Counted from the stretch's first letter, positions 16,105 through 44,661 are shown. The stretch is DNA of 44,661 bases from Myxococcales bacterium (GCA_038320275.1 JBBQEB010000011.1:1-44661); one strand, 5' to 3'. The notes: generated from the sequence alone by a model not told the origin. A program made the numbers and translations.

Positions 16105-17625
<1,521 letters not shown>

Positions 17626-17634
17626 TGGCCGAAC

Positions 17635-18039
17635 ATGCCGCCGAGGCTCATGAAACTCAAAGTTGTGCTGCCCTTCGGGGTCTTTGCCGAGAAGTCTGCC
17701 GTCACGCGCATCGTCGCGGAGACCCCTGAGGGCTCGTTTGGCATCTTGCCACACCGACTCGACTGCGTCGCCACGCTCTCGCCCGGCATCCTGATCTACG
17801 AGACCGAATCGGATGGCGAAGTCTATGTCGCGATAGATGAGGGGGTACTCGTCAAGGCCGGCTTTGACGTTCTCGTGTCCGTGCGCCGCGCGATCGGCGG
17901 AACCGACCTCGGATCATTGCGCGGCTCGGTGGAAGAGGAGTTCCTGGCGATCGACGAGCAGGAGCAGACCCTGCGCACGGTCATGGCGAAGATGGAAAGC
18001 GGGTTTCTACGTCAGTTCGCGAGGTTTCACCGTGAATGA
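17635..18039 (+). CDS. atpC: N-ATPase subunit epsilon (ATG 17650 alternative)
   Basis: GSFGILPHRLDCVATL.PG; position after atpD. Confidence 0.9.
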   Translation: MPPRLMKLKVVLPFGVFAEKSAVTRIVAETPEGSFGILPHRLDCVATLSPGILIYETESDGEVYVAIDEGVLVKAGFDVLVSVRRAIGGTDLGSLRGSVEEEFLAIDEQEQTLRTVMAKMESGFLRQFARFHRE

Positions 18040-18367
18040 TGGGCCGAACGGGAAGTCCCCCGGCAACGGTGAGACGTTCGCCGTGAAGGTCAGCGCCAAG
18101 GTGTTGCGCAAGATCAAGGCGCGGCGCAACCCCACCCAGGTCTGGTTCGGCCTCGGGATGATGGGGCTCATCGGCTGGTCCGTGGTGGTTCCAACCCTGC
18201 TCGGCGCGGCACTGGGCCTCTGGATCGACGGTCGCCATCCGGGAAACCACTCCTGGACCCTCGCGCTGCTGGTGGCTGGACTCGCGATGGGCTGCCTCAA
18301 CGCGTGGCACTGGGTTGCGAAGGAAGACAAGGCCATGCGCGACCCACAGGACAATGACCATGACTAG
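18032..18367 (+). CDS. atpQ: N-ATPase AtpQ (AtpZ/AtpI-like 2-TM protein)
   Basis: VWFGLGMMGLIGWSVVVPTLLG.ALGLWID...GCLNAWHWV; GTG overlaps the end of atpC. Confidence 0.85.
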   Translation: MNDGPNGKSPGNGETFAVKVSAKVLRKIKARRNPTQVWFGLGMMGLIGWSVVVPTLLGAALGLWIDGRHPGNHSWTLALLVAGLAMGCLNAWHWVAKEDKAMRDPQDNDHD

Positions 18368-18677
18368 GCTGCCAACGTTGATCCTGGCGTGCATGGCGGG
18401 AGGAGGCCTGGGCACGGTGTTCTTCGGTGGCCTCTGGTGGACGCTTCGCAAGGGCATCTCATCCAATCACCCCGCGCTCTGGATCGTCGGCAGCGCACTG
18501 CTGCGCATGGCTGTGACCATTTCCGGATTCTACGTCGTCTCCGCTGGTGAGTGGGCGCGGCTCCTTTCGTGCCTCCTCGGCTTTTCTGTCGCACGCGTGG
18601 CCACGACGTGGCTGACCCGACAATCGGGAGAACGCCGCATTCGCAGCCCGGCACATGAGGCCCGCCATGCATCTTAG
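18360..18677 (+). CDS. atpR: N-ATPase AtpR membrane subunit
   Basis: LGTVFFGGLWWT, S.LLR, LLGF.VAR; the Arg-containing helices typical of AtpR. Confidence 0.85.
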   Translation: MTRLPTLILACMAGGGLGTVFFGGLWWTLRKGISSNHPALWIVGSALLRMAVTISGFYVVSAGEWARLLSCLLGFSVARVATTWLTRQSGERRIRSPAHEARHAS

Positions 18678-19362
18678 TCCGGACCAGGTGATCTTCTGGC
18701 AGCATGGGTTTCTGAAGCTCAACGCTACCATCGTGTTCACGTGGGGGCTGATGATCGTGCTTGCCGTGGGTTCCAAGCTGATCACGCGCAAACTGTCGCT
18801 GAACCTGAAGCGATCTCGCTGGCAGAACGCCCTGGAGATGGTCGTCACCTCCATCGAGACGCAAATCGAGGAAGTCGGCCTTCAACATCCCGAAAAGTAC
18901 CTCGGATTCCTCGGCACTCTCTTCCTGTTCCTGGCCACGGCTGCCTTGTTCACGGTCATCCCCGGCTACGAGCCCCCAACCGCTTCGCTGTCCACCACCG
19001 TGGCACTTGCGCTGTCCGTGTTCGTGGCCGTGCCGCTCTTCGGCATCGAGGACCAGGGCGTCGGCGGCTACCTCGAGTCGTATGTCGAGCCGACGATCAT
19101 CATGCTGCCATTCAATATCATCAGCGAAATATCCCGAACACTGGCCCTGGCGGTCCGACTCTTCGGCAACATGATGAGTGGCGCAATGATCATCGCCATC
19201 CTGCTCACCATCACCCCGTTCATCTTTCCAATCTTCATGACGGCGCTCGGCCTGCTCACCGGCATGGTGCAGGCCTACATCTTCAGCATCCTGGCAGCGG
19301 TCTATATCGCCGCGGCCACGCGCGCCCGCAAACCAAAGCCCGAGCCGGCGGCGGCCACTTGA
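18667..19362 (+). CDS. atpB: N-ATPase subunit a
   Basis: PPTASLSTT, SRTLALAVRLFGNM with the essential Arg, GMVQAYIF. Confidence 0.93.
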   Translation: MHLSPDQVIFWQHGFLKLNATIVFTWGLMIVLAVGSKLITRKLSLNLKRSRWQNALEMVVTSIETQIEEVGLQHPEKYLGFLGTLFLFLATAALFTVIPGYEPPTASLSTTVALALSVFVAVPLFGIEDQGVGGYLESYVEPTIIMLPFNIISEISRTLALAVRLFGNMMSGAMIIAILLTITPFIFPIFMTALGLLTGMVQAYIFSILAAVYIAAATRARKPKPEPAAAT

Positions 19363-19392
19363 GGCAGCGATGAACCCATCCAAGGAGACACC

Positions 19393-19674
19393 ATGGAAAG
19401 CATGACGATCATCGCGGTGGCATCTATTGTCATCGCTGGCATCACCACGGCATTTGGTACCATGGGGCCTGCTCTCGCGGAAGGAAGGGCAGTTGCGACG
19501 GCGTTGAGCTCGCTGGCCCAGCAGCCCGATGCATCCTCCACCATCACGCGAACACTGTTCGTCGGTCTGGCGATGATCGAGTCGTGTGCCATCTACTGCT
19601 TCGTGGTCTCGATGATCCTGATCTTCGCGAACCCATTTTGGCACAGCGTCATCGATAAAGCTGCGGGGAAATGA
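19393..19674 (+). CDS. atpE: N-ATPase subunit c
   Basis: AAGGAG RBS; helix-1 Glu30 (LAEG), QQPD loop, helix-2 IESCAIY (Glu63). Confidence 0.95.
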   Translation: MESMTIIAVASIVIAGITTAFGTMGPALAEGRAVATALSSLAQQPDASSTITRTLFVGLAMIESCAIYCFVVSMILIFANPFWHSVIDKAAGK

Positions 19675-19677
19675 TTC

Positions 19678-20775
19678 ATGCTCATCGATTGGTTCACCGT
19701 CGGGGCACAGGCGCTCAACTTCCTCATCCTGGTGTGGTTGATGAGGCGCTTTCTCTACAAGCCCATCCGGCAGGCCATCGATGAGCGGGAGAAGCGCATC
19801 GCATCCGAGCTGGCGGATGCGGACGCGAAGAAGGCCGAGGCCAAGGGAGAGCGCGACGAGTTCCAGCGCAAGAACGAGGAGCTCGATCAGCAGCGCGGCG
19901 CGCTCCTCGGCAAGGCGACGGAGGAAGCGAAGGCCGAGGGCCAGCGGCTCATCGAGGAAGCGCGCAAAGCAGCGGACATCTTGAGCGCGAAGAGGCAGGA
20001 AGCGCTGAGAAACGAGGCCCGCAACCTGAATGAAGCCATCGGTCGCCGGGCGCAGAGTGAAGTGTTTGCCATTGCTCGAAAGACGCTGACGGACCTTGGA
20101 GGACGGAGCCTCGAGGCGCGCATCGCCGAGGTCTTCATCCGCCGCGTGCGGGAGATGGATGGACCCGCGAAGGGAGGACTCGCCGAGGCCCTGAGGACTG
20201 CGTCTGAACCAGCGCTCGTGCGCAGCGCGTTTGATCTGCCAGCAGAACAGCGCGCCGCAATACAGGCGGCGCTGCGCGAAACCTTCTCGGCGGCGGTCCG
20301 CGTTCGCTTCGAGAGCGCCCCCGACCTGATCGGCGGCATCGAGCTCACCACCCAGGGACAGAAGGTGGCTTGGAGCATCGCCGACTATCTGGGGTCGTTG
20401 GAGAAGGGGGTCGAGGACCTGTTGAAGGCACACGAGGAGCCTGGACCCAAGGCCAAGGCTGCCGCCGACGTGACAACGAAGATCGCCAGGCGCGCATACG
20501 AACTGTACGAAGAGCGAGGCCAACGGAGCAACTCTGCCGGCCAGGACTGGAGCCAGGCGGAGCGGGAAGTTCGGGAAGGCGCCGGCGAACCCAAGCCCAC
20601 CCTTGAAACCGAGGTGAAGCCAGACACCACGGTAAAGCTTGCCCCGGACGCCGCGGCGGGACCGAAACCGGACGCGAAGGCCGACCCCAAGCTCGAGGCG
20701 AAGCCACCGCCAAAAGGGGAAGCCGCGGTCGGGACGAAGTCCGAGGAACGTCAGCCCCCGACGAAGAGCGCATGA
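19678..20775 (+). CDS. atpF: N-ATPase subunit b (b-delta-like fusion) with extra C-terminal domain and P/K/E tail
   Basis: [28 protein letters not shown], coiled coil, delta-like PDLIGGIEL...[10 protein letters not shown], then about 120 extra aa. Confidence 0.9.
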
Positions 20776-22421
20776 AGATGGAACCCGAGCGTCTTCAAGC
20801 CGTTCTCGACCGGGCGTTCGCTGAACTGACCCAGGTGGTGAAAGACTTCACCCCAGTTCTCGCGCCGCGCGAGGTGGGCACGATCACGACGGTCTCCACG
20901 GGCATCGCCAAGGTCGTCGGGCTCCCCAATGTAGGCTTCGAAGAGCTGATCAAGTTCCCCGGCGGAGGGTTCGGCATCGCGTTCAACGTGGACGAGGATG
21001 AGATCGGCGTCGTGCTGCTTGGCGAATACTGGCACCTGCACGCTGGCGATGAGGTCGAGCGGACGGGCCGAGTCATGGACGTGCCGGTGGGCGATGGGCT
21101 GCTGGGACGCGTGATCGACCCGCTCGGCCAGCCGCTGGACGGCGATGGACCGGTCACTGCCAAGGGGCGCCTGCCCATCGAGCGGCCAGCTCCTCACATC
21201 ATGGATCGAGCGCCGGTCACGGTTCCGCTCCAGAGTGGCCTGAAGGTCATCGATGCGCTCATTCCCATCGGACGCGGCCAGCGCGAGTTGATCCTCGGCG
21301 ACCGGCAGACGGGCAAGACGGCGATCGCGATCGACACCATCCTGAACCAGCGGGATCAGAACGTCGTGTGCGTCTACTGCGCCATTGGCCAGCGTGCCTC
21401 TGCCGTCGCCAAGGCCGTTGCTGTCCTCCGGGAGAAGGGCGCTCTGGATTACACGGTCGTGGTCGTGACCGAAGGCAATGACCCACCAGGCCTCGCCTTC
21501 ATCGCTCCCTACGCTGCGACCAGCATCGCGGAGCACTTCATGGAGGCCGGCCGCGACGTGCTCGTCGTCTACGACGATCTCACACATCACGCGCGCGCCT
21601 ACCGCGAGCTTTCGCTGCTGCTGCGCCGCCCCCCGGGTCGCGAAGCATTTCCCGGGGACATCTTCTACATCCACTCCCGGCTGCTCGAACGGTCCACGCG
21701 CCTCCGCGAGGAGCTCGGGGGTGGCTCCCTGACGGCGCTGCCCGTGATCGAGACCGAGGCGCAGGACATTTCCGCCTACATCCCGACGAACCTGATCTCC
21801 ATCACCGACGGGCAGATCTACCTGTCGCCATCGCTCTTCGAGTTGGGTGTGTTACCCGCGGTGGACGTCGGGAAATCGGTGTCGCGCGTCGGGGGAAAGG
21901 CACAACGGGCGGCGTATCGCGCCGTGGTGGGTGATCTCAAGCTCGCCTACGCGCAGTTCGAGGAGCTCGAGACTTTTGCTCGGTTCGGGGCTCGGCTCGA
22001 CGAAGATACGCGAAAGACCATCGAGCACGGGCGGCGAATCCGCGCCTGTCTCAAGCAGCCGGAGTTCAGCCCGGTCCCCGTGCCCGCGCAGATCACGGTC
22101 CTGCTGGCGCTCTCCGAGAGACTTCTCGACATGGTGCCGATGGATCAGATGAAGGAGGCCGAACAGGCGTTGCACGCGGCGGCGGGAACCATCCCGGCCG
22201 AGGTGTGCGCAAGGTTCGACACGGCCAAGACGCTCAGCGACGACGATCGAAAGGCAATTGTCGACATTGCCAGGCAGTCGGTCGTACGTTTCCAACCCAA
22301 ATCGGAGACCAAGCCGGAAGTCAAGCCAGACGCCAGGGTCGATCCCTCGCCAAGACCCGGATCGAAGCCGAAGGCCAAGGCGATCGTACCCCCGGCGAAG
22401 CCAGGCGGGGAAGCGGCATGA
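20772..22421 (+). CDS. atpA: N-ATPase subunit alpha
   Basis: [56 protein letters not shown]. Confidence 0.96.
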
Positions 22422-23311
22422 GCGAAAGCACCGCCTCCCTGCGCCACAAGCTCACCAGTGCCGGCGACCTTCAATCCGTCGTACGAACCATGAAGGCGCT
22501 GGCCGCGTCGAGCATCGGACAATACGAGAGCTCGGTGCGCGCTCTCTCCGACTACTACCGGACCGTGGAGCTGGGGTTGAGCGTGTGTCTTCGGCAAAAC
22601 GGTCCCAGCGCTTCGATCGTTACGGGATACGCAGAGGCAGATGCGGGGCCGATCGGGGCCATCGTGTTCGGGTCCGACCAGGGCCTCGTCGGCCAGTTCA
22701 ACGACCTGGTCGCGGACCATGCGATTGCGACACTGGCACCGCTGTCCGGAAAACCTCGAGTGTGGGCCGTGGGCGAGCGCGTTCATGCGCGGCTCGTGGA
22801 TGCGGGCCTGCCGGTGATCGGGCTCTTCCCGGTCCCGAACGCCGTTCACGCCATCGCTCCCCTGGTCGGACGGATCCAGATCGCGACCGAGGCCCATCGG
22901 ACGGAAGGCAAGGATGCGCGTATCTACGTCTTCCACAACCGCCCGCGGGGAGGGGCGCAATACGAGGCAGTCGACCAGCGGTTGTTACCCCTCGATGCCA
23001 CGTGGCAACGCGGTCTCATCGACGTCAAGTGGCCGACCGACAGGCCTCCCGAGGTCATGGGCGGCGTCGTCGAAACGCTGCGCGCGCTCCTGCGGGAATA
23101 CCTGTTCATCTCGCTCTTCCGGGCGTGCGCCGAATCGCTGGCGAGCGAGAACGCGAGCCGTCTGGCGGCAATGTCACGCGCGGACAAGAATATCGACGAG
23201 CTGCTGGAAGGTCTCCACGGCACGTTCCACCGGGTGCGGCAGAGGAGCATCGACGAAGAGCTCTTCGACGTGATCTCCGGCTACGACGCCTTGGCGAACG
23301 GCAGTGTGTAG
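22418..23311 (+). CDS. atpG: N-ATPase subunit gamma
   Basis: [52 protein letters not shown] overlap with atpA. Confidence 0.93.
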
Positions 23312-29372: not shown

Positions 29373-31151
29373 TCAGGCTCCCCGGGGAAGGTGCGCCGGG
29401 GGCGGAGCCGCGGCCGGCTTCCAGAACTGGCGCGGCAGGAGGCAGAGGCCCATGAGCAGGAGCTGGGAGCCGATGAACGCCGCCAGGGCCCAGAACGCCT
29501 TGTCCATGAAGCCGTAGGAGTGGAGGCCGATGCCGAGCATGTTCACCCCGAACCAGGAGAGGCTCGTGATGACGTTGCCGAAGATGGCCATCGTCATGAT
29601 GCCCTTCTCGCGCACGAACCCGCCCCAGCGCGCGTGCAGGATGATGGCGTTCCAGAGGACGATGAGGAGGGCGCCGTTCTCCTTGGGATCCCAGCCCCAG
29701 AAGCGGCCCCAGGACTGGTCGGCCCAGATTCCGCCCAGCACCGTGCCGATGAAGGAGAAGAAGAGCGCGAAGCAGATGACGCCGTAGGCCATGGAGACGA
29801 GGGTCTTCGACGTGGTGGGGTCGAGCCGCGGGGCGAGGTGGCGGCGCAGCACGTACCCGATGGCGATGGCGCCGGCGAGGAAGGTGCCGCTGTAACCGAT
29901 GGTGATGGTCACCACGTGCGTGGCCAGCCAGAAGTTCGAGTCGAGGACGGCGCGCATCATCTCCATGGTGTCGCCATCGCCCATGAGGTGGTGCGCGACG
30001 ATGAGCGACGAGAAGCCGGCCGCGGCGGCCACCGCGGTGCCGAAGCCGCGCCGGTAGATCCGCTCCAGCACGATGCCGAGGAGCACCGCCACCCAGCCCA
30101 CGAAGATGGCGGACGAGTAGAGGTTCGTCACCGGCGGGCGGCCCTGCAGGACGATGCGCGAGACGAGCCCGGCGGTGTGGACCACGGCACCCGAGAGGAG
30201 CAGCGCGAAGGACACGGGCTGCAGGATGCGCGGCTTCACGGCCCAGGAGGCGAAGAGCGCGAGGAGCGCCAGCACGTAGATGACCATGCCGGCGTAGAAG
30301 GGCTGGGCGCGGTTGAAGAGCGTCTCGTGGTCCGCCTTGCTCTCGGCACCGGGCCGGGCGGCGACGGTCACCGCGCGCACTTTTCCCACTGCGCGGTTGA
30401 AGCTGGCTGGATCGCCGCCGGCATAGGCGAGCCCCACCTGAGCGAGCGGCACCAGCGCGGGATCGAGGTTTCCGCGCGCGCGGAGCCCGTCGGCCACGGT
30501 GCGCCAGGCGTCGCCGGAGGTGCCGGGGAGCGGCGGGAGCGGACGGAAGAAGGAGAGGCCGGCGAGCTGCTCGTAGCGCTGCGGAGCGGCGGGGTCGGCT
30601 CCGCGCGCAGCGAGCTCGGCGCCCAGGCTGGTGCCGGCGAGCTGCACCGTGTTCTCCAGCCGGTAGTAGAGGTAGACGCGCTCGAACAGGTTGAGGACGG
30701 CGCCCTGGAAGCGGCTGCGCTGCTTCGCGTCCACGACCTCGGCCGCCTGCGCCTGGCGCTGGATCTCCTCCAGGTGCGGCGCCATCGTCTTGAAGGAAAA
30801 GTAGCGGTCGGAGGTCTGCTTCAGCCCGATGAGCCCGAGGACGTCCGGGTCGTTGATGACGAAGGCGGGCTGGGCGTCGGCCACATCGGGCCGGAAGAGC
30901 ACGTCGAGCAGCCACTCGTCCGCCTCGAGGGTCCGGCCCTCGTACCGGAAGCTCTGCTGGCTCCGGATCATGAGGAGCGAGTTGCGCGCGATGGAGTCGA
31001 GCGGCTTCACCCGCCCGCCCTCCAGCACTGGCAGCCGGCCGAAGGCGGCCACGTCGAAGCCGCGGGCTTTTCCGGGCGGGAGCATGGCCGCCGCCGCGGC
31101 GCCGAGCGCCACCACCCCCACCACCCACGGCGCGATCTTCTCGAGCTTCAT
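29373..31151 (-). CDS. ccsA: System II cytochrome c synthase subunit CcsA (long form)
   Basis: LPV..GGRVKPLD, RPPVTNLY, FWLATHV, WWD domain WADQSWGRFWGWDPKEN, GLHSYG. Confidence 0.9.
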   Translation of the reverse strand: MKLEKIAPWVVGVVALGAAAAAMLPPGKARGFDVAAFGRLPVLEGGRVKPLDSIARNSLLMIRSQQSFRYEGRTLEADEWLLDVLFRPDVADAQPAFVINDPDVLGLIGLKQTSDRYFSFKTMAPHLEEIQRQAQAAEVVDAKQRSRFQGAVLNLFERVYLYYRLENTVQLAGTSLGAELAARGADPAAPQRYEQLAGLSFFRPLPPLPGTSGDAWRTVADGLRARGNLDPALVPLAQVGLAYAGGDPASFNRAVGKVRAVTVAARPGAESKADHETLFNRAQPFYAGMVIYVLALLALFASWAVKPRILQPVSFALLLSGAVVHTAGLVSRIVLQGRPPVTNLYSSAIFVGWVAVLLGIVLERIYRRGFGTAVAAAAGFSSLIVAHHLMGDGDTMEMMRAVLDSNFWLATHVVTITIGYSGTFLAGAIAIGYVLRRHLAPRLDPTTSKTLVSMAYGVICFALFFSFIGTVLGGIWADQSWGRFWGWDPKENGALLIVLWNAIILHARWGGFVREKGIMTMAIFGNVITSLSWFGVNMLGIGLHSYGFMDKAFWALAAFIGSQLLLMGLCLLPRQFWKPAAAPPPAHLPRGA

Positions 31152-32335
31152 CGGCCACCCTCCAGCGCGAGCTTTCCCGGCGCGACGGGCCTGCGGCGCA
31201 GCCCGCGCCGAAGGGAGATGGAGAAATGCACCAGCAAACCGATCGTCACGAGCACGCACGAAACGTACGGCAAGAGCCAGCCCGGATTGTCCACCACCTG
31301 CAGGATGGAGAGCGTGTCGCCCTTGCCGAAGCTGGCCTGGTAGAAGGCCTTGCCGTCGTACCTTAGCGGCTGGTTCATGTAGATGAGGACGTCGCGCTCC
31401 TCGCCCTTGGACGGGTTGGAGAGGTGCACCAGGCTCGAGAAGTTCTTGGGGATGGTCGTGCCCGCGTAGACGTCGTGGCTGAACTTCTTCAGCGTGAGCG
31501 AGTAGGGCAGGTAGCGCCGCCGCGGCCGGAGCTCGAGCCCATAGGTGTGGCCCTCGTGCGTGAAGCCCTGCGCCGCTCCGAGCCCGCTCGCCGCGAGCCA
31601 GGTGCCGTAGCTCCGGCCTCCCGCCACCGGCTCCACGTACACGGCGGTCCGGTTCACCTGGTCGTCGGCGGTGACGGGAGGCAGCTCGCGGGCCGTCACC
31701 GTCGCTCCCACCCCCGCGGTCGCGAGCGGCCGGGGGTCGCCCGCGGCGATGGTGCGAAGATCGGCGTTGCGGAGGAAGCGTTGGACGCGCAACGACACCG
31801 GCGTGCCCGGCAGCTCGATGGTCCCGCCGCGGGCGAGCAGGGACTCAGGCACCCCGTACACCTCGTCGGCCGCCGGGTCGGTGCGATCCACCACCGCGAG
31901 CTCGAGCTCGCGGGGACTCTCCACGTAGTTGAGCGTCTGGCCGTTCTCGATGGCGAGCTGGCTCTCCACCTGGAAGATGCTGGTCACGAACTCGCCCACG
32001 AAGAGCAGGATGAGCCCGATGTGGACGATCCAGAGCCCGGCCTTCTTCCAGGACAGCTCGAGCCGGTTCACCTGCGCCGCGATGAGGTTCGCGCCGAGCA
32101 CGAGTCCCACCGTTGCGCCGCCGGGCATCATGGGAACGCTGCGGCCGGTGCCCGGGATCTCGGCCCAGACGAAGAAGCTGCGGATGTAAAGGTTCACCGC
32201 GCCCAGCGTGCCGAGGCTCACCTGCGCGAGCGTGCAGGCGATGACGAGCACCATCAAGAGCGCCAGGCACACGATGCTGAGCTTGAGGGACGTGAAGACG
32301 TCCCAGACCGCCATTCCGACGTCCTTAGTCTTCAA
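31148..32335 (-). CDS. ResB/CcsB-like cytochrome c biogenesis protein (ATG 32314 alternative)
   Basis: SLKLSIV..LMVLV..CTL, GLWIVHIGL, PKNFSS, IYMNQPLRY...FYQAS, NPGW.LPY. Confidence 0.85.
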   Translation of the reverse strand: MKTKDVGMAVWDVFTSLKLSIVCLALLMVLVIACTLAQVSLGTLGAVNLYIRSFFVWAEIPGTGRSVPMMPGGATVGLVLGANLIAAQVNRLELSWKKAGLWIVHIGLILLFVGEFVTSIFQVESQLAIENGQTLNYVESPRELELAVVDRTDPAADEVYGVPESLLARGGTIELPGTPVSLRVQRFLRNADLRTIAAGDPRPLATAGVGATVTARELPPVTADDQVNRTAVYVEPVAGGRSYGTWLAASGLGAAQGFTHEGHTYGLELRPRRRYLPYSLTLKKFSHDVYAGTTIPKNFSSLVHLSNPSKGEERDVLIYMNQPLRYDGKAFYQASFGKGDTLSILQVVDNPGWLLPYVSCVLVTIGLLVHFSISLRRGLRRRPVAPGKLALEGGR

Positions 32336-32993
32336 AGCGCAGGCTCTCCAGCAGGTGGACGAACTCGGGCCTCGCCGCTGCCACCGGCTTCTCGTCGCCC
32401 GACATCTTGAAGAACCAGGTGCTGCCGCGGACCGTGGCGAGGCTCGCCACGACGCGGGTCCTGGTGGTGCCCTCGCCGGTGAAGTCGTACAGCGAGAACG
32501 CGCCGGCCTTGGTGGGGACAGTTTTGCGCGCGGCGGCCATGGCGGTCTCGTCGAGAGGTGAGAGCCCGATCTGATTTCGCCACCGGTTCACGTTGGCGAG
32601 CTCGCCGCCGGCGGGCCCGGGCAGGACGATGACGGAGACGTCGATCTTGCCCTCGCCGGACGGCTTCAAGGTCGCGTACCGCATTCCGCCCGAGAGGGCC
32701 TGCGTCCAGCCCTGGGGAAGGGTCCAGCGCACCGCGGCATCGCCGGCGGGCGTGGGCGGAGGCGGGATGTCGCCCGCCATGGACGCGCCCGGGCCGGCGG
32801 CCGCGCCCCCAGCAGCCGGCGCCTGGGAACCCGCCCCGAGGGGGGATGACGCGGCAAGCACTGGCGGCGTCGCTGGGTGGGGAACCCGCACGTGGGTGAC
32901 CTCGTCGCGGCGGCAAGCCGGCAGCAGGAGAGCCAGCGCGACGGCGGCAGCCGCCGGTCCCGACCACTTAGGGGGAGAGGTTTTGATCCGCAT
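32325..32993 (-). CDS. Lipoprotein of unknown function leading the resB-ccsA operon
   Basis: Signal ending ALALLLPAC; WTLPQGW, GGELANVNRWRNQIGL, TWFFKMSG; overlaps the resB start. Confidence 0.75.
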   Translation of the reverse strand: MRIKTSPPKWSGPAAAAVALALLLPACRRDEVTHVRVPHPATPPVLAASSPLGAGSQAPAAGGAAAGPGASMAGDIPPPPTPAGDAAVRWTLPQGWTQALSGGMRYATLKPSGEGKIDVSVIVLPGPAGGELANVNRWRNQIGLSPLDETAMAAARKTVPTKAGAFSLYDFTGEGTTRTRVVASLATVRGSTWFFKMSGDEKPVAAARPEFVHLLESLRFED

Positions 32994-32996
32994 CAA
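32983..32996. promoter_or_regulatory. Perfect FNR/Crp-family consensus box TTGAT-N4-ATCAA
   Basis: TTGATCCGCATCAA read directly; lies at the junction of two divergent cytochrome c maturation units. Confidence 0.6.
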
Positions 32997-33188
32997 CCCT
33001 GGTGAACGCATGGCGGCGCTCGTTTGTTCATGCCTGCGACGATGTGGGGGGCCCGCGCCTGTGGAAGGCGTGAGGCGGGCCGGATGTTGCTTGACTTACC
33101 ACGCAGCCCCGGCGGGTGCACGGCCGGGTTCCCTCCCGCCGCGCCATCTGCTACCCATGCGCCGCCCCGCCCCCGGAGATCGCCCGAG

Positions 33189-35510
33189 ATGAACAAGGCT
33201 CTCGAAAGCCTCGCCTCGATTTCGCTCGCCATCCTGCTGCTCGTGCTCCTGCTGCTGGGCCTCGCGACGGGCACCATCGTCGAGTCGATGCGCGGCGCCG
33301 AGGTGGCTGGCCGGGTGGTCTACTACTCCTGGTGGTTCATCGGGCTGCAGGGTGCCTTCGTCCTGAACGTGCTCGCCTCGATCGCGCTCCACTTCCCCTG
33401 GGGCAAGGAACGGGTGGGCTTCCTCACCGCTCACAGCTCGCTCGTCGTGATCCTCATCGGCGCGCTGGTGTCGTTCTTCTGGAAGACCGAGGGCCACCTC
33501 ATGCTGTGGGAGGGGGAGTCGGGGAACGAGATCGTGAACCAGGATCCGCAGGGCCGGGTGCTCGACCGCGCGACCCTGCCGTTCACCGTGAAGCTCGATC
33601 GCTTCCGCGTGGATCACTACCCGGGCACCATGCGGCCCTCCAACTTCCGCAGCGACGTGGAGATCAGCGATCCCGCCGGCCAGCCCTTCAAGGCCGGCGT
33701 GTGGATGAACCACGAGCTGGAGCACCGTGGCTGGCGGCTCTTCCAGTCGAGCTACCAGCAGGCGAACGGGCGGAGCGCGACGGTGCTCTCGGTGGCGAAG
33801 GACCCGGGCCAGCCCATCGTCTTCGTCGGCTACGTTTTGCTCGTCCTCGGCATGTGCATCGTCCTCGGGACCCGCATCGCGCAGACCCGCGCGCTCGCCG
33901 CCGGGACAGGGGCTGGCCCCGGTCGGCCCGCCGCCAAGGGTCGCTCCGGAGGAAAGGCCGCTGCCTCCGCCTTGGCGCTGCTCTTCGCGGGCGGCCTGGG
34001 CGCCTGGGGCGGTAACGCCCGCGCAGCCGACGACGCCGTCTCGGCCGCGCGCAGGCTCCCCGTCCAGCACGACGGCCGCGTGATGCCGCTCGACACCGTG
34101 GCGCGTGAGGCGGTGTGGAACGTGACGGGCGCGCGGGCGGGGAGGGGGGACGAGGCGGTGGCGCAGGTCCTCCGCTGGCTCGGGAGCCCGGACCAGGCCG
34201 TGAACGACCCTATCGTGAAGCTCGGCAGCGACGAGCTGGCGGTGGCGGCCGGGCTACCAGCGAGCGCGACCCACGCCTCGTTCTCGCAGCTCGTGAACAG
34301 CCGGGCGGTGATCCAGCTCATGGGGAGTGCGCGGCAGGCCGCCGCGAGCGGCACGCCGCGCACGGGCGTGATGGCGGCCGCCGAGAAGGTGGAGGAGCGC
34401 CTCCTGTGGATGCAGCGCTTCCTGGAGAGGGAGATCCTCCGGTCCATCCCGATCCCGGGCGACCCGAACGCGCAGTGGACGTCCATCCCGTTCACCACCG
34501 CCGGGGAGATCGCGCAGCTCGCGGGCAACGAGCGGCTCGACGGCTGGCCCTCCCGCGCGGCCATCGAGCGCGAGATCACCTACAACGACGTACGCCCCAC
34601 GCGGCTCGCCTGGATCGTGCTGGCGCTGGCGCTCGCGCTCTCCATCGCGGGCTGGAACCGCGGCAGCAAGCTCCTCGACGGCCTCTCGCTGGCGGGGCTG
34701 GTGGCCGGCTTCGCCATCATGTCCTGGGGCATCTGGGCGCGCTGGGACGTGGCGGGCCGGGTCCCCGCCTCCAACATGTACGAGTCGCTGCTCTTCCTGG
34801 CGTGGGGGGTGGGCCTGTTCGCGGTGGTCGCCTTCGCGCTGGTGCGAAACCGGCTGGTGGTGGTGAACGCGAACGCCATGGCCGCGCTCACCATGATCCT
34901 CACCGACCTCCTCCCCATCGACGCCTTCGTGCACCCCGTTCCGCCGGTGCTGGCCGGCACCTACTGGCTCGCCATCCACGTGCCCATCATCATGGTGAGC
35001 TACTCGGTGCTGGCGCTGGGCGTGGTGGTGGCGCACATGCAGATCGGCACCACCATCTTCGCCCCCAAGCGGAGCGACCTCGTCGCCCGCATGGCTGACC
35101 TTCTCTACTGGTACATCCACGTCGGCTCGATCCTCCTCATCACCGGCATCCTCACCGGATCGATGTGGGCCTCGTCGTCCTGGGGACGTTACTGGGGCTG
35201 GGATCCGAAGGAGGTCTGGTCGCTGGTGGCCTTCCTCGCCTACATCGCCATCCTGCATGGCCGCTGGGAGCGGTTCATCGGCGCCTTCGGCGTGGCGGCC
35301 CTGAGCATCGGGGCCTTCCAGACCATCCTCATGACGTATCTGGGAGTGAACTTCGTCCTCACCACCGGGCTGCACTCCTACGGCATGGGCGATTCTCCGG
35401 TGGTGAAGTGGATGGCGCTGGTGGCGGGGCTGGAAACGGTCTTTCTCCTGTGGGGCATCGTGGCTCACCGGCAACAGTTGAGGCACGAGGAGGAACTGGC
35501 GCTCCTGTGA
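33189..35510 (+). CDS. Fused ResB-CcsA (CcsBA) System II cytochrome c synthase
   Basis: ResB part (GFLTAHSS, PSNFRS, WMNHEL...LFQSSY, DPGQPIVFVGY); CcsA part (GRVPASNMYE, WLAIHV, WASSSWGRYWGWDPKEVW, GLHSYG). Confidence 0.9.
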   Translation: MNKALESLASISLAILLLVLLLLGLATGTIVESMRGAEVAGRVVYYSWWFIGLQGAFVLNVLASIALHFPWGKERVGFLTAHSSLVVILIGALVSFFWKTEGHLMLWEGESGNEIVNQDPQGRVLDRATLPFTVKLDRFRVDHYPGTMRPSNFRSDVEISDPAGQPFKAGVWMNHELEHRGWRLFQSSYQQANGRSATVLSVAKDPGQPIVFVGYVLLVLGMCIVLGTRIAQTRALAAGTGAGPGRPAAKGRSGGKAAASALALLFAGGLGAWGGNARAADDAVSAARRLPVQHDGRVMPLDTVAREAVWNVTGARAGRGDEAVAQVLRWLGSPDQAVNDPIVKLGSDELAVAAGLPASATHASFSQLVNSRAVIQLMGSARQAAASGTPRTGVMAAAEKVEERLLWMQRFLEREILRSIPIPGDPNAQWTSIPFTTAGEIAQLAGNERLDGWPSRAAIEREITYNDVRPTRLAWIVLALALALSIAGWNRGSKLLDGLSLAGLVAGFAIMSWGIWARWDVAGRVPASNMYESLLFLAWGVGLFAVVAFALVRNRLVVVNANAMAALTMILTDLLPIDAFVHPVPPVLAGTYWLAIHVPIIMVSYSVLALGVVVAHMQIGTTIFAPKRSDLVARMADLLYWYIHVGSILLITGILTGSMWASSSWGRYWGWDPKEVWSLVAFLAYIAILHGRWERFIGAFGVAALSIGAFQTILMTYLGVNFVLTTGLHSYGMGDSPVVKWMALVAGLETVFLLWGIVAHRQQLRHEEELALL

Positions 35511-40228: not shown

Positions 40229-40648
40229 ATGACGGACGCTGACGACTCGGAAGCTCGCCAGGCCGATCTCGCGCTGCGCCGGACGGAGCTCGAGGCGATG
40301 CTCGAGAAGTTCGGCGTCCGCAGCGCCCGCGACCCCGTCGAGCCCTATCGCTGTGATTGGAATGACGGCGTCGGCCGGGGCTGGTTCGGCATCATCGAGG
40401 AGCTCGTGAAAGACCTCCTCGCGCTCGGCTGGGACGGGCGGCTTTGGCAGGTGAAGTCGAAGTTCGGCACGCTGCGGTTCTATACGGAGCAGCACTCGCC
40501 CGAGCTGAGCGAACGCATCTCGGCGGCGGAGAAGGCGAGCGCGATCGTCTGCGAGCGGTGTGGGCTTCCGGGCACTCTCGTCCGGGAGGAGAACCGCTGG
40601 TGGACGACGCGGTGCGAGGAGTGCCGGCGCGCGGGTCCTTGGCTGTGA
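40229..40648 (+). CDS. Hypothetical protein, family A copy 2
   Basis: AGGGG upstream; 43/85 identical residues (ungapped, hand count) with copy 1. Confidence 0.8.
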   Translation: MTDADDSEARQADLALRRTELEAMLEKFGVRSARDPVEPYRCDWNDGVGRGWFGIIEELVKDLLALGWDGRLWQVKSKFGTLRFYTEQHSPELSERISAAEKASAIVCERCGLPGTLVREENRWWTTRCEECRRAGPWL

Positions 40649-41232
40649 GCCGACGGTCGACGACGGACGGCGTCTCCCCAAGGCCCGCAAAGCGTAGTGC
40701 TTCGCGCAGCACGCGAGAGGCGGGCGGGCGGGGGTGGCTCGAGCGCGAGTTCGCCCGGTGGCTGAAGGTCCATGCCGGCCGCTTTCCGGTCCGGCTCGTC
40801 CCGACGCGAGAGGAAGAGGGCATTCCTACAGCCTATCGCTTCCGCGGAGTGCCCTACCTCGAGCTGCACGTGCACCACGGCAACTTCGAGGTCTGGGTCC
40901 TGTACCGTGGGAAGAGCATGGACATCATCATGGAGCTCGACATCTGGCTGCGGAGGAGCCGTCACGGGAACTACCACTGCGCGTCCTGCATCGTCCCCAA
41001 AGACTACCCTACCAAGACCTTGATCGCGGCGGAGCACTCCTTCGAACCTTTCCTCGCCTGGTGCACGGAAAAGTTCCGTGACGACCAGTTCCTCAGCATC
41101 TACGAAGCTTCGAAAGGTTTCTCCTGGGCGAACATCAGGCCGATGGACAAGGTCGAGGCGGATGCACCCGGGGTTGCGCCCAACATCTTCGTGAAGCCGG
41201 TGCTCAGACGCCGCCCGAGCAAAGCAAGGTGA
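40645..41232 (+). CDS. Hypothetical protein, family B copy 2
   Basis: GTGA coupling to A2; shares WL..E...WL..HA, YRF.GV, G.FEV.V, Y.C..C, HSF.P.L.WC with B1. Confidence 0.75.
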   Translation: MSRRSTTDGVSPRPAKRSASRSTREAGGRGWLEREFARWLKVHAGRFPVRLVPTREEEGIPTAYRFRGVPYLELHVHHGNFEVWVLYRGKSMDIIMELDIWLRRSRHGNYHCASCIVPKDYPTKTLIAAEHSFEPFLAWCTEKFRDDQFLSIYEASKGFSWANIRPMDKVEADAPGVAPNIFVKPVLRRRPSKAR

Positions 41233-41452: not shown

Positions 41453-41566
41453 CGCGGCCATCGAGGTGCCCGATGCGGGCACGCTATCGCTCCAGAGGTC
41501 CGCGCAGAGCAGTGGTACAGAACGCGCCGCGGCCGACCCGCCCAGCGACGACGACAGGCCCGGACG

Positions 41567-41645
41567 GTGAGTCAGTCCCGGATCTCCATCCGTAGACGCG
41601 AGCCGGGCCGTGAGCCAGTCCCGGATCTCGCCGTGGACGCGAGCC
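41567..41645. repeat. Imperfect tandem direct repeat (38/36 bp) upstream of the tusA operon
   Basis: GTGAGTCAGTCCCGGATCTC-CAT-CCGTAGACGCGAGCC (41567-41604) versus GTGAGCCAGTCCCGGATCTC-G-CCGTGGACGCGAGCC (41610-41645). Confidence 0.8.
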
Positions 41646-41740: not shown

Positions 41741-41974
41741 ATGGACTCCACCCTTCACCCTGACGACGCCTGGGATGCCGGCGGCATGGGCTGCGGCGAG
41801 CTCGTCTTCGCCCTCGCCATGCGCTTGCGCGCGCTGCGCCCTGGCGCGATCTTCATGCTCACCGCCACCGACGGCGGCGCGCCGCACGACATCCCGGCCT
41901 GGTGCCGCATGACGGGCCATCCGCTCTTGCGCGCGGAGCACCCCTGCTACCTCATCCAACGAAAGGAAGGCTGA
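41741..41974 (+). CDS. TusA/SirA-family sulfur carrier
   Basis: GAGAGG RBS; WDAGGMGCGEL, L.ATD.GA.HDIPAWCR.TGH. Confidence 0.85.
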   Translation: MDSTLHPDDAWDAGGMGCGELVFALAMRLRALRPGAIFMLTATDGGAPHDIPAWCRMTGHPLLRAEHPCYLIQRKEG

Positions 41975-41976
41975 AC

Positions 41977-42339
41977 ATGGCTGGAAAGATCTGCGTCTCG
42001 ATCACGCACGCGAAGAACGACCCCGACAAGGCGACGGTGGGCTTCGTCGTCGCGAACGCCTCCGTGGCCTCCGCGCAGGAGACGGTGGTGTTCCTCTCCA
42101 CCGAGGCGGTGCGCATCGCGGTCAAGGGATACGCGGAGGAGATCCACGAGGAGGGCTTCGCGCCGCTGAAGGATCTCGTGGCGAACTTCGCGAAGGCGGG
42201 CGGAACCCTCTACGTCTGCTCGCCCTGCCTCAAGAAGCGCGGGCTCGACGACAAGCCGCTCGTCGATGGGGCAATGGTCGTGGGCGGCGCCAAGGTCGTC
42301 GAGTTCCTGGCGTCCGGCGCAGCCTGCATCTCCTACTGA
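41977..42339 (+). CDS. DsrE-family protein
   Basis: GGAAGG RBS; DKATVGF.VA, VVFLSTEAV, YVCSPCLKKRG, VVGGA. Confidence 0.88.
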   Translation: MAGKICVSITHAKNDPDKATVGFVVANASVASAQETVVFLSTEAVRIAVKGYAEEIHEEGFAPLKDLVANFAKAGGTLYVCSPCLKKRGLDDKPLVDGAMVVGGAKVVEFLASGAACISY

Positions 42340-42356
42340 CGGGTGGGACCGCGACC

Positions 42357-43946
42357 ATGAGCACCGAGCGACCCACGCCGACCGACCGGCCCACGGCCCT
42401 CGAGGAGCGTCGCCCCTCTGTGCCGCGGGCAAGCTTTGATGGCGGCAGCCTCGACTGTGGGAGTGGGCTCCTCCTGCTCATCCGCCAGCACATCGATCCT
42501 CTCGCGGACGGCGAGCTCCTGGAGATCCGCTCGTCGGAGGCCTCCGTCCGCGAGGACCTCCCCTCCTGGTGCCGTATGACGGGGAACGAGCTCGTGTCGC
42601 GTCAGGAGGTGCCCGGCGGCGCGAGCTTCCTCGTCGCGAAGGGCAAGTTCGTGCGGGACGCGGCCCTGGCTGCCTCCGGCGCCGCCGCGGCGGTGCCAGC
42701 CGGGCGCGCTCCGACGAGCGCCATGCGGGCAGCGGTCCCGGCCCACATCCCCCAGGAGCTTCCGCCCCCCGCCCCAGCCCCCGCCATCGCGCCGCTCTCC
42801 GTGATGGGCGTGGGGAGCTGGCCGCGCCCGCGCTGGATGCTCGAGGCGCTGCACGCGCACCTGGAGGGGAAGCTCGCCGATGCGGACTTCGAGGCGACGG
42901 CGGACGACGCGGTGAAGCTCGCCATCGCGGCGCAGGTCGCGGCCGGCGTGGATGTCGTGACCGACGGTGAGCAGCGTCGCGACAACTACGCGAGCTTCGT
43001 CGGGGCGCGGCTCGACAACTGCCAGCTCGTGCCCATCACCGATCTGCTCTCGTACGTCGATGACCCCGCCGAGTTCGAGCGCGAGCTACGCGCGCTCGAC
43101 GTGCCCGCGGGCAAGGTGCGCCACCCGGCCGTCCTGGGGCCGCTCTCCCGGACCCGGCCGCTCGCGGTACACGAGCTCGAGTTCGCGAAGGCGCAGACGG
43201 CGCTCCCGGTGAAGGTCGCCTTGCCGGGGCCGTACCTCCTCGCGCGCACCATGTGGATGGAGTGCATCTCGGATCGCGCGTACGCGGACCGGGGTGCGCT
43301 GGCGAAGGACGTGGTGCGCGTGCTCCGCGAGGAGCTCCATTTCCTGCTCGCGGCCGGCGCGGCGCTCGTGCAGCTCGACGAGCCGGTGCTGTCGGAGGTG
43401 GTCTTCGGCGGCAGCGCGAGCGGCAACCGCACCTTCATGTGCGGCGTCCTGGACGCCCGAGGCTCCGCCGACGTCGAGCTCGCCTTTGCCGAGGAGCTGC
43501 TCGCCGAGGTGACCCGCGGCCTGCCCCGGGAGCGCCTCGCGCTGCACGTCTGCCGCGGCAACTGGACCCCGGACGAGGGCGTCGCGCTCACCGGCGACTA
43601 CCGGCCGCTGGTGCCGCTCCTCTCGCGCGCCCCCGTTGGCACGCTCCTGCTCGAGCTCGCGACGCCCCGGGCTGGGGAGCTCGAGGTCCTGCGGAAGCTG
43701 CCCGGAGACAAGCGCATCGGCGTGGGCCTGGTGAACCAGAAGCTCCCTCGCGTGGAGCCGGTTGAAGAGGTGCTCGCCCGCGCGGAGCAGGCGGTCCAGC
43801 TGTTCGGCGTCGAGCGGGTGCTCCTCAATCCCGATTGCGGCTTCGCCACCTTCGCCGACAATCCCATCGCCTCGGCGGAGATCGCCTCGGGAAAGCTCCG
43901 CGCGCTCACCGAGGCGGCGAGGGTCCTGCGCAGCCGGCATCTGTGA
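42357..43946 (+). CDS. TusA-domain fused to a cobalamin-independent methionine-synthase-II-like (MetE C-terminal barrel) protein
   Basis: N-terminal FDGGSLDCGSGL...DLPSWCRMTGNEL; linker; VGSWPRP, TDGEQRR, QLDEP, Zn ligands LHVCRGN, LLELA, NPDCGF. Confidence 0.88.
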   Translation: MSTERPTPTDRPTALEERRPSVPRASFDGGSLDCGSGLLLLIRQHIDPLADGELLEIRSSEASVREDLPSWCRMTGNELVSRQEVPGGASFLVAKGKFVRDAALAASGAAAAVPAGRAPTSAMRAAVPAHIPQELPPPAPAPAIAPLSVMGVGSWPRPRWMLEALHAHLEGKLADADFEATADDAVKLAIAAQVAAGVDVVTDGEQRRDNYASFVGARLDNCQLVPITDLLSYVDDPAEFERELRALDVPAGKVRHPAVLGPLSRTRPLAVHELEFAKAQTALPVKVALPGPYLLARTMWMECISDRAYADRGALAKDVVRVLREELHFLLAAGAALVQLDEPVLSEVVFGGSASGNRTFMCGVLDARGSADVELAFAEELLAEVTRGLPRERLALHVCRGNWTPDEGVALTGDYRPLVPLLSRAPVGTLLLELATPRAGELEVLRKLPGDKRIGVGLVNQKLPRVEPVEEVLARAEQAVQLFGVERVLLNPDCGFATFADNPIASAEIASGKLRALTEAARVLRSRHL

Positions 43947-44049: not shown

Positions 44050-44661
44050 TCAAGCTCCCGCGCCGCCGGGAGGCGGCGGGTCCGGGTCCGCTCTCGCCGC
44101 CGCTCGCGCGCGCCGTCCCCGCGCCCAGACCACCGCCGCGTAGACGAGGCCGGTGACGACGCCCGCCGCGAGCAACCAGAGCTGCACCTCGTGGATGCGC
44201 CGCTTCACGTGGTCGAGGTGCGCGGCGAAGAACCAGCCCAGGGACACCACCAGCGGCACCGAGAGGAGCGCCGAGATCCCGTCGGCGAGGAGGAAGGTGC
44301 GCGCGGGGACCCCGTGCGTCCCCGCCAGCACGTAGGCGCCGAGGCGGAGCCCCGAGGTGTGGCGCGCCACGAGGATGGTGAGGAAGGCGTGGCGGGAGAA
44401 GTGGTGAAGGAGGAAGGCCCGGCGCTTCGGCGTCAGCACCTTCTTCACGCTGCGCCGCTCGAGGAGCTTGTCTCCGTGGCGCTGCGCGAGGGTGAAGAGG
44501 AGGAAGTCGCCCACCACGATGCCGGTCCAGGCCGCGACGATGGCGGGAACGAGCTCGAGGACGCCGCGTTTCGCCAGGAAGCCGGCGCTGAGCTGCACCA
44601 GCTCCTCCGGGACCGGGACGCCCACCCCGCCCGCGACGAGCAGGCCGGCGATGGCGAGGTA
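44050..44661 (-). CDS. DedA-family membrane protein (5' end beyond the window)
   Basis: G.PVPEE..L.AG, GIVVGD, ARH.SGLR, FLLAD.ISA; the frame stays open to the window edge. Confidence 0.88.
   Translation of the reverse strand, partial: YLAIAGLLVAGGVGVPVPEELVQLSAGFLAKRGVLELVPAIVAAWTGIVVGDFLLFTLAQRHGDKLLERRSVKKVLTPKRRAFLLHHFSRHAFLTILVARHTSGLRLGAYVLAGTHGVPARTFLLADGISALLSVPLVVSLGWFFAAHLDHVKRRIHEVQLWLLAAGVVTGLVYAAVVWARGRRARAAARADPDPPPPGGAGA

Follow-up and report, generated by a model that had tools for sequence, protein, structure and literature searches.

A TusA/DsrE-linked MetE-type barrel protein as a candidate selenium-scavenging module in bacteria

Introduction

Epoxyalkane:CoM transferase (XecA/EtnE) is built on a single MetE-type barrel and carries out zinc-thiolate alkyl transfer. 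In selenium metabolism, Sdm and type I mlp gene clusters salvage methyl-selenide via zinc-barrel methyltransferases, and TusA is co-induced in Methanococcus upon selenium starvation (the latter according to papers citing the Methanococcus voltae study; PMC10418091, PMC11097638). According to PMC9312934 and PMC11097638, no dedicated selenium transporter is known. Here we analyse a three-gene cassette (tusA, dsrE and a TusA::MetE-like fusion; positions 41741 to 43946) from a Myxococcales bacterium (GCA_038320275.1, JBBQEB010000011.1:1-44661); this stretch of 44,661 nucleotides is referred to as the window. Databases label the fusion protein as an ordinary methionine synthase. We tentatively favour the view that the cassette is a cobalamin-free module for selenium scavenging, in which methylated selenium would donate its methyl group to homocysteine and its selenium to TusA and SelD; all readings that involve selenium, taken together, account for about half of our confidence.

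Results

The cassette was compared with relatives in 200 loci (80 from GTDB genomes, 80 from metagenomes, and others), of which 180 encode the fusion and 20 belong to a sister clade with an unfused barrel; the counts include genomes flagged as unpublished (G012, G800, G805 and G810, i.e. loci L013, L065, L071 and L077). The open reading frames described in an earlier note on this DNA were confirmed. All three lie on the plus strand: a stand-alone TusA/SirA-like carrier gene (41741..41974; 77 aa, Pfam TusA 34.3 bits vs a cut-off of 28.6), a DsrE-like gene (41977..42339; 120 aa, Pfam DsrE E-value 4.6e-15) and the TusA::MetE-II-like fusion gene (42357..43946; 529 aa, TusA at 39-95 and Meth_synt_2 with an E-value of 8.5e-29), with intergenic gaps of 2 nt (tusA/dsrE) and 17 nt (dsrE/fusion). 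The fused TusA-like domain (about residues 25-95; 42429..42641, plus strand) precedes a single MetE-type barrel (42792..43943, plus strand). As stated earlier, the N-terminal barrel of MetE is absent: Meth_synt_1 gave 18.9 bits (cut-off 27) and overlapped the same barrel. AlphaFold2 modelling of the fusion protein (64-row alignment) yielded a mean pLDDT of 83.3 and a pTM of 0.85, and the best fold matches of the predicted structure were MetE and 3RPD.

The zinc ligands H397, C399, E433 and C494, which the earlier note had found retained, and the homocysteine ligands S154, E205 and D341 (roles according to PMC7857596) were invariant wherever covered in the 200 loci. Because S154, E205 and D341 do not vary, zinc probably still binds free homocysteine as its thiol and not the protein-borne thiol or persulfide proposed before; the protein-borne species would more likely be the co-substrate, carried on Cys362/TusA. 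Retention of all these ligands, in a fold shared with MetE and MesD, would also suit a fifth core methionine synthase family, with TusA and DsrE supplying or regenerating the methyl donor and no special element chemistry. We regard this as improbable: the host encodes MetH, the distribution is patchy, met genes are adjacent in one lineage only, and among Rfam regulatory RNAs no riboswitch was detected in the 7 loci scanned, which gave tRNA-Sec alone. In line with the earlier contention, the protein is not an ordinary MetE, and it fell short of the models for MetE, split MetE and MesD; those for the archaeal methionine synthases (MesA/MesB/MesC) were likewise far below cut-off for the fusion protein.

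Overlooked in the earlier note was the most informative residue, Cys362 (encoded at 43440-43442). It forms part of a F360-M361-C362 motif (43434..43442, plus strand) that is invariant in the fused loci and lies on an insertion after D341 that MesD does not have. The loop is probably mobile because it is poorly predicted (pLDDT <50 in the AlphaFold2 model), and its position in the sequence suggests that it follows the helix carrying the pterin ligand of MetE. All 180 fused loci have Cys at position 362, as do 15 of the 20 sister-clade loci; the other 5 have an in-frame TGA, fall in two separate subclades (in a quick tree) and come from genomes that all contain SelB (5/5). A hairpin is present 15-35 nt 3' of the TGA in all five copies, a count made without shuffled control. 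Exchange of this kind between Cys and TGA typically marks a catalytic Cys/Sec residue, and the sister-clade members with TGA are apparently selenoproteins. Selenocysteine codons were found neither in the fused copies nor in the genes of the partners (TusA, DsrE, OsmC-like and transglutaminase-like). Selenoproteins of the DsrE-like and OsmC-like kinds are listed in PMC9312934, where the three mentions of methionine refer to MsrA; the Sec form of the barrel could already be present in supplementary tables of selenoprotein predictions. C222, H256 and C303 were considered as core residues and dismissed, since they are conserved in the fused clade only. One fusion gene contains an in-frame TAG at a non-conserved position (L061:8504), reflecting either a broken copy or an assembly error.

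At the folate site, E347 is conserved in 79/80, 80/80, 20/20 and 20/20 of the loci in four sets, and together with R255 it aligns with Glu583 and Arg496 of Thermotoga maritima MetE (PMC539065). The equivalents of Trp539 and Arg493, in contrast, have been lost. A pterin is a conceivable donor.

The carrier domains differ from canonical TusA in that CPxP is replaced by C-G in both, as had been noted (C18 in the stand-alone protein, C34 in the fused domain). It is a family-specific motif, with CGE or CGD in 152 of the 154 matches of the stand-alone type, and PRK00299 gave 37.8 and 25.1 bits against a cut-off of 78. A second Cys in WCRMTG is indeed shared by both domains (C55 and C72) and found in 152/154 matches, but it is not peculiar to them: E. 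coli TusA has a cysteine at the same alignment column. In the fused domain C34 and C72 are invariant. The reported CSPC motif of the DsrE-like protein (C81-S-P-C84) was also found; both cysteines are present in 74 of 74 aligned loci, and the protein is a probable thiol-disulfide partner. In two loci (L056:8569-9222 and L068:8527-9270) the barrel gene is immediately followed by a gene for another fusion, with a TusA-like domain at its C terminus.

TusA and DsrE are established families of sulfur carriers, and a sulfur version of the pathway, which comes nearest to the earlier proposal, has to be weighed, in which sulfur of methanesulfinate, thiosulfate or a persulfide would be passed by TusA/DsrE to the zinc-homocysteine site to give methionine, homocysteine or a persulfide. 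YeeD breaks down imported thiosulfate (PMC11073785), metY/metX/metW are divergently oriented to the cassette in 4 Binatia loci, soxC is found near 4 loci, and anions of the methanesulfinate/thiosulfate type could fit the importer pocket described below. We consider this version unlikely: CPxP has been lost, genes for sulfate assimilation, sulfonates and Sox/Hdr are not broadly recurrent among the neighbours, and neither the SelD pattern nor the placement in sel islands (see below) would be explained.

The cassette is widespread across many phyla but patchy. At least 540 relatives were found among 604 stretches from GTDB genomes and 578 among 593 stretches in a metagenome scan. The best 80 GTDB relatives (57-82% identity) come from Myxococcota, Pseudomonadota, Planctomycetota, Binatota, Rokuibacteriota, Actinomycetota and others. 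Carriers make up 8/36 genomes in the family of the host, 17/301 in a Burkholderiales family, 2/131 in Paracoccus and 38/251 in a sample of Planctomycetota. Within 6 kb, dsrE is present in 74/80 and stand-alone tusA in 67/80 of the GTDB loci; with so many relatives and the linkage to dsrE, the arrangement is not due to chance. The expected linkage of homologs to tusA and dsrE holds even where the barrel is unfused. The sister clade accounts for 23 of the 38 Planctomycetota carriers (41-49% identity) and has its second TusA domain joined to an OsmC-like domain; dsrE, tusA and TusA::OsmC are found in 18, 18 and 19 of the 20 loci, respectively. The sister clade thus keeps the cassette with the barrel unfused, and the functional link is therefore independent of the fusion. 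No common motif was found among the upstream regions of 110 operons.

Many operons also encode a route of entry. A PhnD/E/C-type ABC importer is present in 30/80 GTDB loci and 11/80 metagenome loci, and in other lineages a DcaP-like porin and a secreted transglutaminase-like protein take its place. In the sister clade from Planctomycetota (L207-L226), the transglutaminase-like protein was seen in 13/20 and the porin in 10/20 loci; the ESM Atlas returned only generic transglutaminase names for the former. Genes for a membrane protein of ~160 aa and a secreted protein of ~510 aa are inserted in the cassette in a few, mostly importer-less loci (L049:4951-6998, L063, L094 and L235). The best solved relative of the importer's binding protein is HtxB (E-value 1e-81, vs 8e-19 for PhnD). 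W52, R178 and D206 are kept, with Ser128 and His158 present, in 27 of 27 aligned binding proteins, and position 176 is Phe or Tyr in the 20 of 20 shown. Asn128, Phe158 and Met176, which in HtxB proper go together with blocking of the third oxygen, are absent. Judged by these residues, the binding proteins belong to the HtxB-'hybrid' class, whose pocket has been modelled at 88 cubic angstrom compared to 68 for HtxB (PMC5700983, PMC6629693). The extra 20 cubic angstrom would accommodate about one methyl group, and small oxyanions bearing H or methyl substituents seem to be the cargo of the class. Because a hybrid-pocket importer is part of the operon in many of the loci, the substrate of the cassette is probably an imported small oxyanion.

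Outside the cassette, hybrid binding proteins occur in three settings: behind an HtxA-like dioxygenase, inside arsenosugar clusters, and alone. The first is exemplified by a plasmid of Ciceribacter selenitireducens (L090:10770-14593), where the gene for a dioxygenase with 46% identity to HtxA precedes that of a hybrid importer sharing 77% identity with the cassette's; the dioxygenase is a candidate for oxidising the same ligand. The binding protein encoded there nests among the cassette copies. This arrangement, the HtxB-like binding protein as such and the phosphite binding predicted for such proteins (PMC6629693) would suit oxidation of reduced phosphorus, with hypophosphite, phosphite or methylphosphinate being imported and oxidised via a disulfide relay. 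We give this little credence. The pocket residues of the hybrid class (Ser128, His158) differ from those of HtxB, Pho boxes are not in excess over shuffles upstream of the 110 operons, a PtxD-like gene is present in only 1 of 27 carriers, HtxA, PtxD and C-P lyase genes do not recur near the cassette, and the homocysteine ligands would be left without explanation.

The second setting comprises arsenosugar-type clusters with ArsS and TIGR04282/04283 glycosyltransferases (L249:5884-11777 and L092:4031-10991), whose HtxB-hybrid importers are candidate importers of methylarsenicals. These clusters lead to another, rather unlikely reading, namely that methyl- or dimethylarsenic oxyanions are imported, reduced and bound by the cysteine relay, after which the barrel would move a methyl group to homocysteine in a reversed Challenger step. 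It draws on sister hybrid binding proteins (51-58% identical) inside arsenosugar clusters of two Alphaproteobacteria, in which ArsS scored 445.7 bits (cut-off 300). The arsenosugar-cluster families were originally named for an association with selenium, and their model names (rSAM_SeCys) still carry it. The multiple cysteines would suit As(III), and trxB follows the cassette in Paracoccus. On the other hand, ArsS and the arsenosugar glycosyltransferase were unmatched in the 200 cassette loci and in the host genome, a scan of recurrent neighbours (110 of the 195 remaining clusters, at an E-value of 1e-12) revealed no ArsR, ArsC or Acr3, and the binding proteins of the arsenic clusters form a branch of their own.

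Co-occurrence with selenium genes was assessed in carrier genomes. Of 79 such genomes, 77 encode SelD (48/50 + 29/29; L006 was left out of the tally, being the same genome as L005). In Planctomycetota, SelD is found in 35/38 carriers vs 148/213 non-carriers (p=0.002); the three SelD-negative carriers have SelB or SelU, a check made on carriers only. Among the Burkholderiales family the numbers are 17/17 carriers vs 244/284 others (261/301 overall; p=0.08, not significant). Both comparisons are uncorrected for kinship and genome size. SelA is not enriched in this family (6/17 carriers vs 87/284 others), and a strict tie to Sec synthesis was rejected on the basis of the 6 carriers out of 17. SelU was found in 19 of 35 carriers tested; therefore, the cassette tracks SelD and not one downstream trait. 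All scored Burkholderiales carriers have SelA or SelU, and a SelD-only carrier was not found among the 17. In Paracoccus the cassette is located between a SufS-like gene and selA-trxB, close to selB and tRNA-Sec. Over 160 loci, selD lies within 6 kb in 5, three of which share one arrangement.

The link to SelD and the Cys/TGA exchange would serve equally for selenium readings that run the other way. The barrel may take a methyl group from a methyl-pterin and add it to protein-bound selenium or to selenohomocysteine, as a detoxification, or TusA/DsrE may load SelD-derived selenium on Cys362 as a labile cofactor that mimics the Sec found in relatives, with some other compound as the true substrate. 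Either would be independent of SelA, and E347 and R255 match the ligands of the pterin and its glutamate tail in MetE. We hold both together to be unlikely. Equivalents of Trp539 and Arg493 are missing, as is the entire N-terminal barrel; a high-affinity importer in the operon suits scavenging and not detoxification, and no SelD-only genome was found among the 17 Burkholderiales carriers.

The fusion is the sole Meth_synt_2 protein found in the host genome, which also encodes SelA and a TGA-containing SelD; SelU gave no match there. Upstream of the cassette the window contains a repeated two-gene unit (paralogous open reading frame pairs 38491-38931/40229-40648 and 39123-39803/about 40444-41232); one of the pairs has a C-terminal zinc-ribbon-like CxxC...CxxC, and neither pair gave a Pfam match over cut-off. 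The spacer upstream of tusA holds an imperfect tandem duplication of ~42 nt (41560-41645), which is not a motif common to the relatives. Convergent with the operon, and cut by the contig end, is a DedA/VTT-domain gene on the minus strand (44050-44661). DedA proteins have been associated with selenite uptake; dedA was rejected as part of the module, because only 1 of the 200 other loci has a DedA gene beside it. Further away are a complete second ATP synthase operon (16159-23311; beta subunit first, in the gene order of N-type ATPases, as recognised from the open reading frames) and a cytochrome c biogenesis system II cluster that includes a ResB::CcsA fusion (29373-35510).

Discussion

The identity of the ligand, each chemical step and the direction of transfer in the scheme that follows are what we infer from the data above. 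A small selenium oxyanion, most likely methylseleninate (alternatively selenite), would enter the cell, in many relatives by way of the operon's own HtxB-hybrid ABC importer or porin. Reduction of the oxyanion would fall to the paired cysteines of TusA, of the fused TusA domain and of DsrE, which would pass on the resulting methyl-selenenyl adduct to Cys362, replaced by Sec in a number of relatives. This residue would sit on a mobile loop, on the side of the barrel from which MetE accepts its methyl donor. The methyl group could then be transferred to zinc-bound homocysteine, forming methionine, and the leftover selenium, as perselenide, would be carried by TusA to SelD for the selenium trait of the host. 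The earlier suggestion of a sulfur or selenium transfer is partly supported, the evidence leaning to selenium and to an imported substrate.

Several observations weigh against this scheme. We found no precedent for methyl transfer from a neutral methyl-selenenyl sulfide, and E347 and R255 are in keeping with a pterin as donor, for which transfer would run the opposite way. Exchange between Cys and Sec points to a catalytic thiol and not to a substrate containing selenium. Close relatives of the binding protein serve the HtxA-like dioxygenase and arsenosugar genes, and the genome of the host contains no hybrid importer, transglutaminase-like gene or second DsrE gene. About 12 of the 77 SelD matches are long frames of oxidoreductase fusions, the enrichment in the Burkholderiales family does not reach significance for SelD and is absent for SelA, and adjacent selenium genes are confined to a few lineages.

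There is a real chance that the cassette represents a new pathway. In agreement with the earlier claim, no biochemical description of the architecture, nor any other account of the cassette, was found in the open-access literature (subscription papers were outside the search). At its broadest, this would be a pathway free of corrinoid, S-adenosylmethionine and folate, in which a MetE barrel with a catalytic Cys/Sec and the TusA/DsrE relay remove methyl groups from environmental oxyanions of methyl-selenium (or methyl-arsenic) and transfer them to homocysteine; it would come with its own high-affinity importer and include a new selenoprotein family, a combination that we consider possible though doubtful. 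Described salvage of methylated selenium is corrinoid-based and known from anaerobes only; the cassette offers candidates for both the salvage and the transporter gap in common aerobic bacteria of soil and freshwater. It also gives the orphan binding proteins of the HtxB-hybrid class a context, and it suggests a MetE-fold enzyme that uses Cys/Sec in catalysis. Under most readings the database label of ordinary methionine synthase would be wrong. If the ligand is a methylarsenical, the bearing would be on aerobic demethylation of arsenic instead.

Of the known systems, MesD, which works with MesX (PDB 3RPD; Price et al. 2021, PMC7857596), resembles the fusion protein in its single barrel with the same zinc and homocysteine ligands, and is the best sequence match in the PDB (E-value 9e-24). 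However, identity to a MesX-linked MesD is 29%, PRK09121 gave 105 bits vs a cut-off of 392, and the cassette barrels form a separate branch in a quick tree; MesD is without the FMC362 loop and TusA, and the partners of the cassette are TusA/DsrE instead of MesX. MesX (PF08908) was matched in 0 of 5 carriers, although the control genomes were likewise unmatched. Full-length MetE has a similar fold, but the fusion of 529 aa scored 71 bits with TIGR01371 (cut-off 929.95). The best NCBIfam model is that of archaeal split MetE (PRK04326; 159.7 bits vs a cut-off of 406), and no Meth_synt_1 partner (PF08267) was matched in the host, whose genome is 90.7% complete, or in 3 of 4 further carriers. In relation to XecA/EtnE, no alkene or CoM genes were found among the recurrent neighbours of the cassette.

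The hybrid binding proteins share with HtxB the W52 cap and the D206-R178 pair, and with the hybrid class Ser128, His158 and Phe/Tyr176 (PMC5700983, PMC6629693); the importers of the cassette are linked to no phosphite or hypophosphite oxidase. YedF (TIGR03527) and YedE/FdhTU (PMC5322559) provide a parallel in combining a TusA-like with a DsrE-like CxxC protein, a link to SelD and a transporter partner. YedF, however, is one polypeptide with CPxP and CGxC and has no MetE-like enzyme, whereas the cassette has separate genes with CGE and CSPC; TIGR03527 gave no match at an E-value of 0.1 in the cassette proteins. SdmABC and the type I mlp system (PMC10418091 preprint, PMC11097638) likewise employ a zinc-barrel methyltransferase of the UROD/MetE superfamily, with a patchy distribution tied to selenium users. 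Their enzymes are of the MtaA type, require a corrinoid protein plus an activase and occur in anaerobes; neither component recurs among the cassette neighbours scanned, and the Cys/Sec relay would take the place of the corrinoid. Since no corrinoid protein recurs, the cassette is not a member of the Sdm/type I mlp group but, on the selenium-scavenging reading that we favour, would be its functional counterpart.

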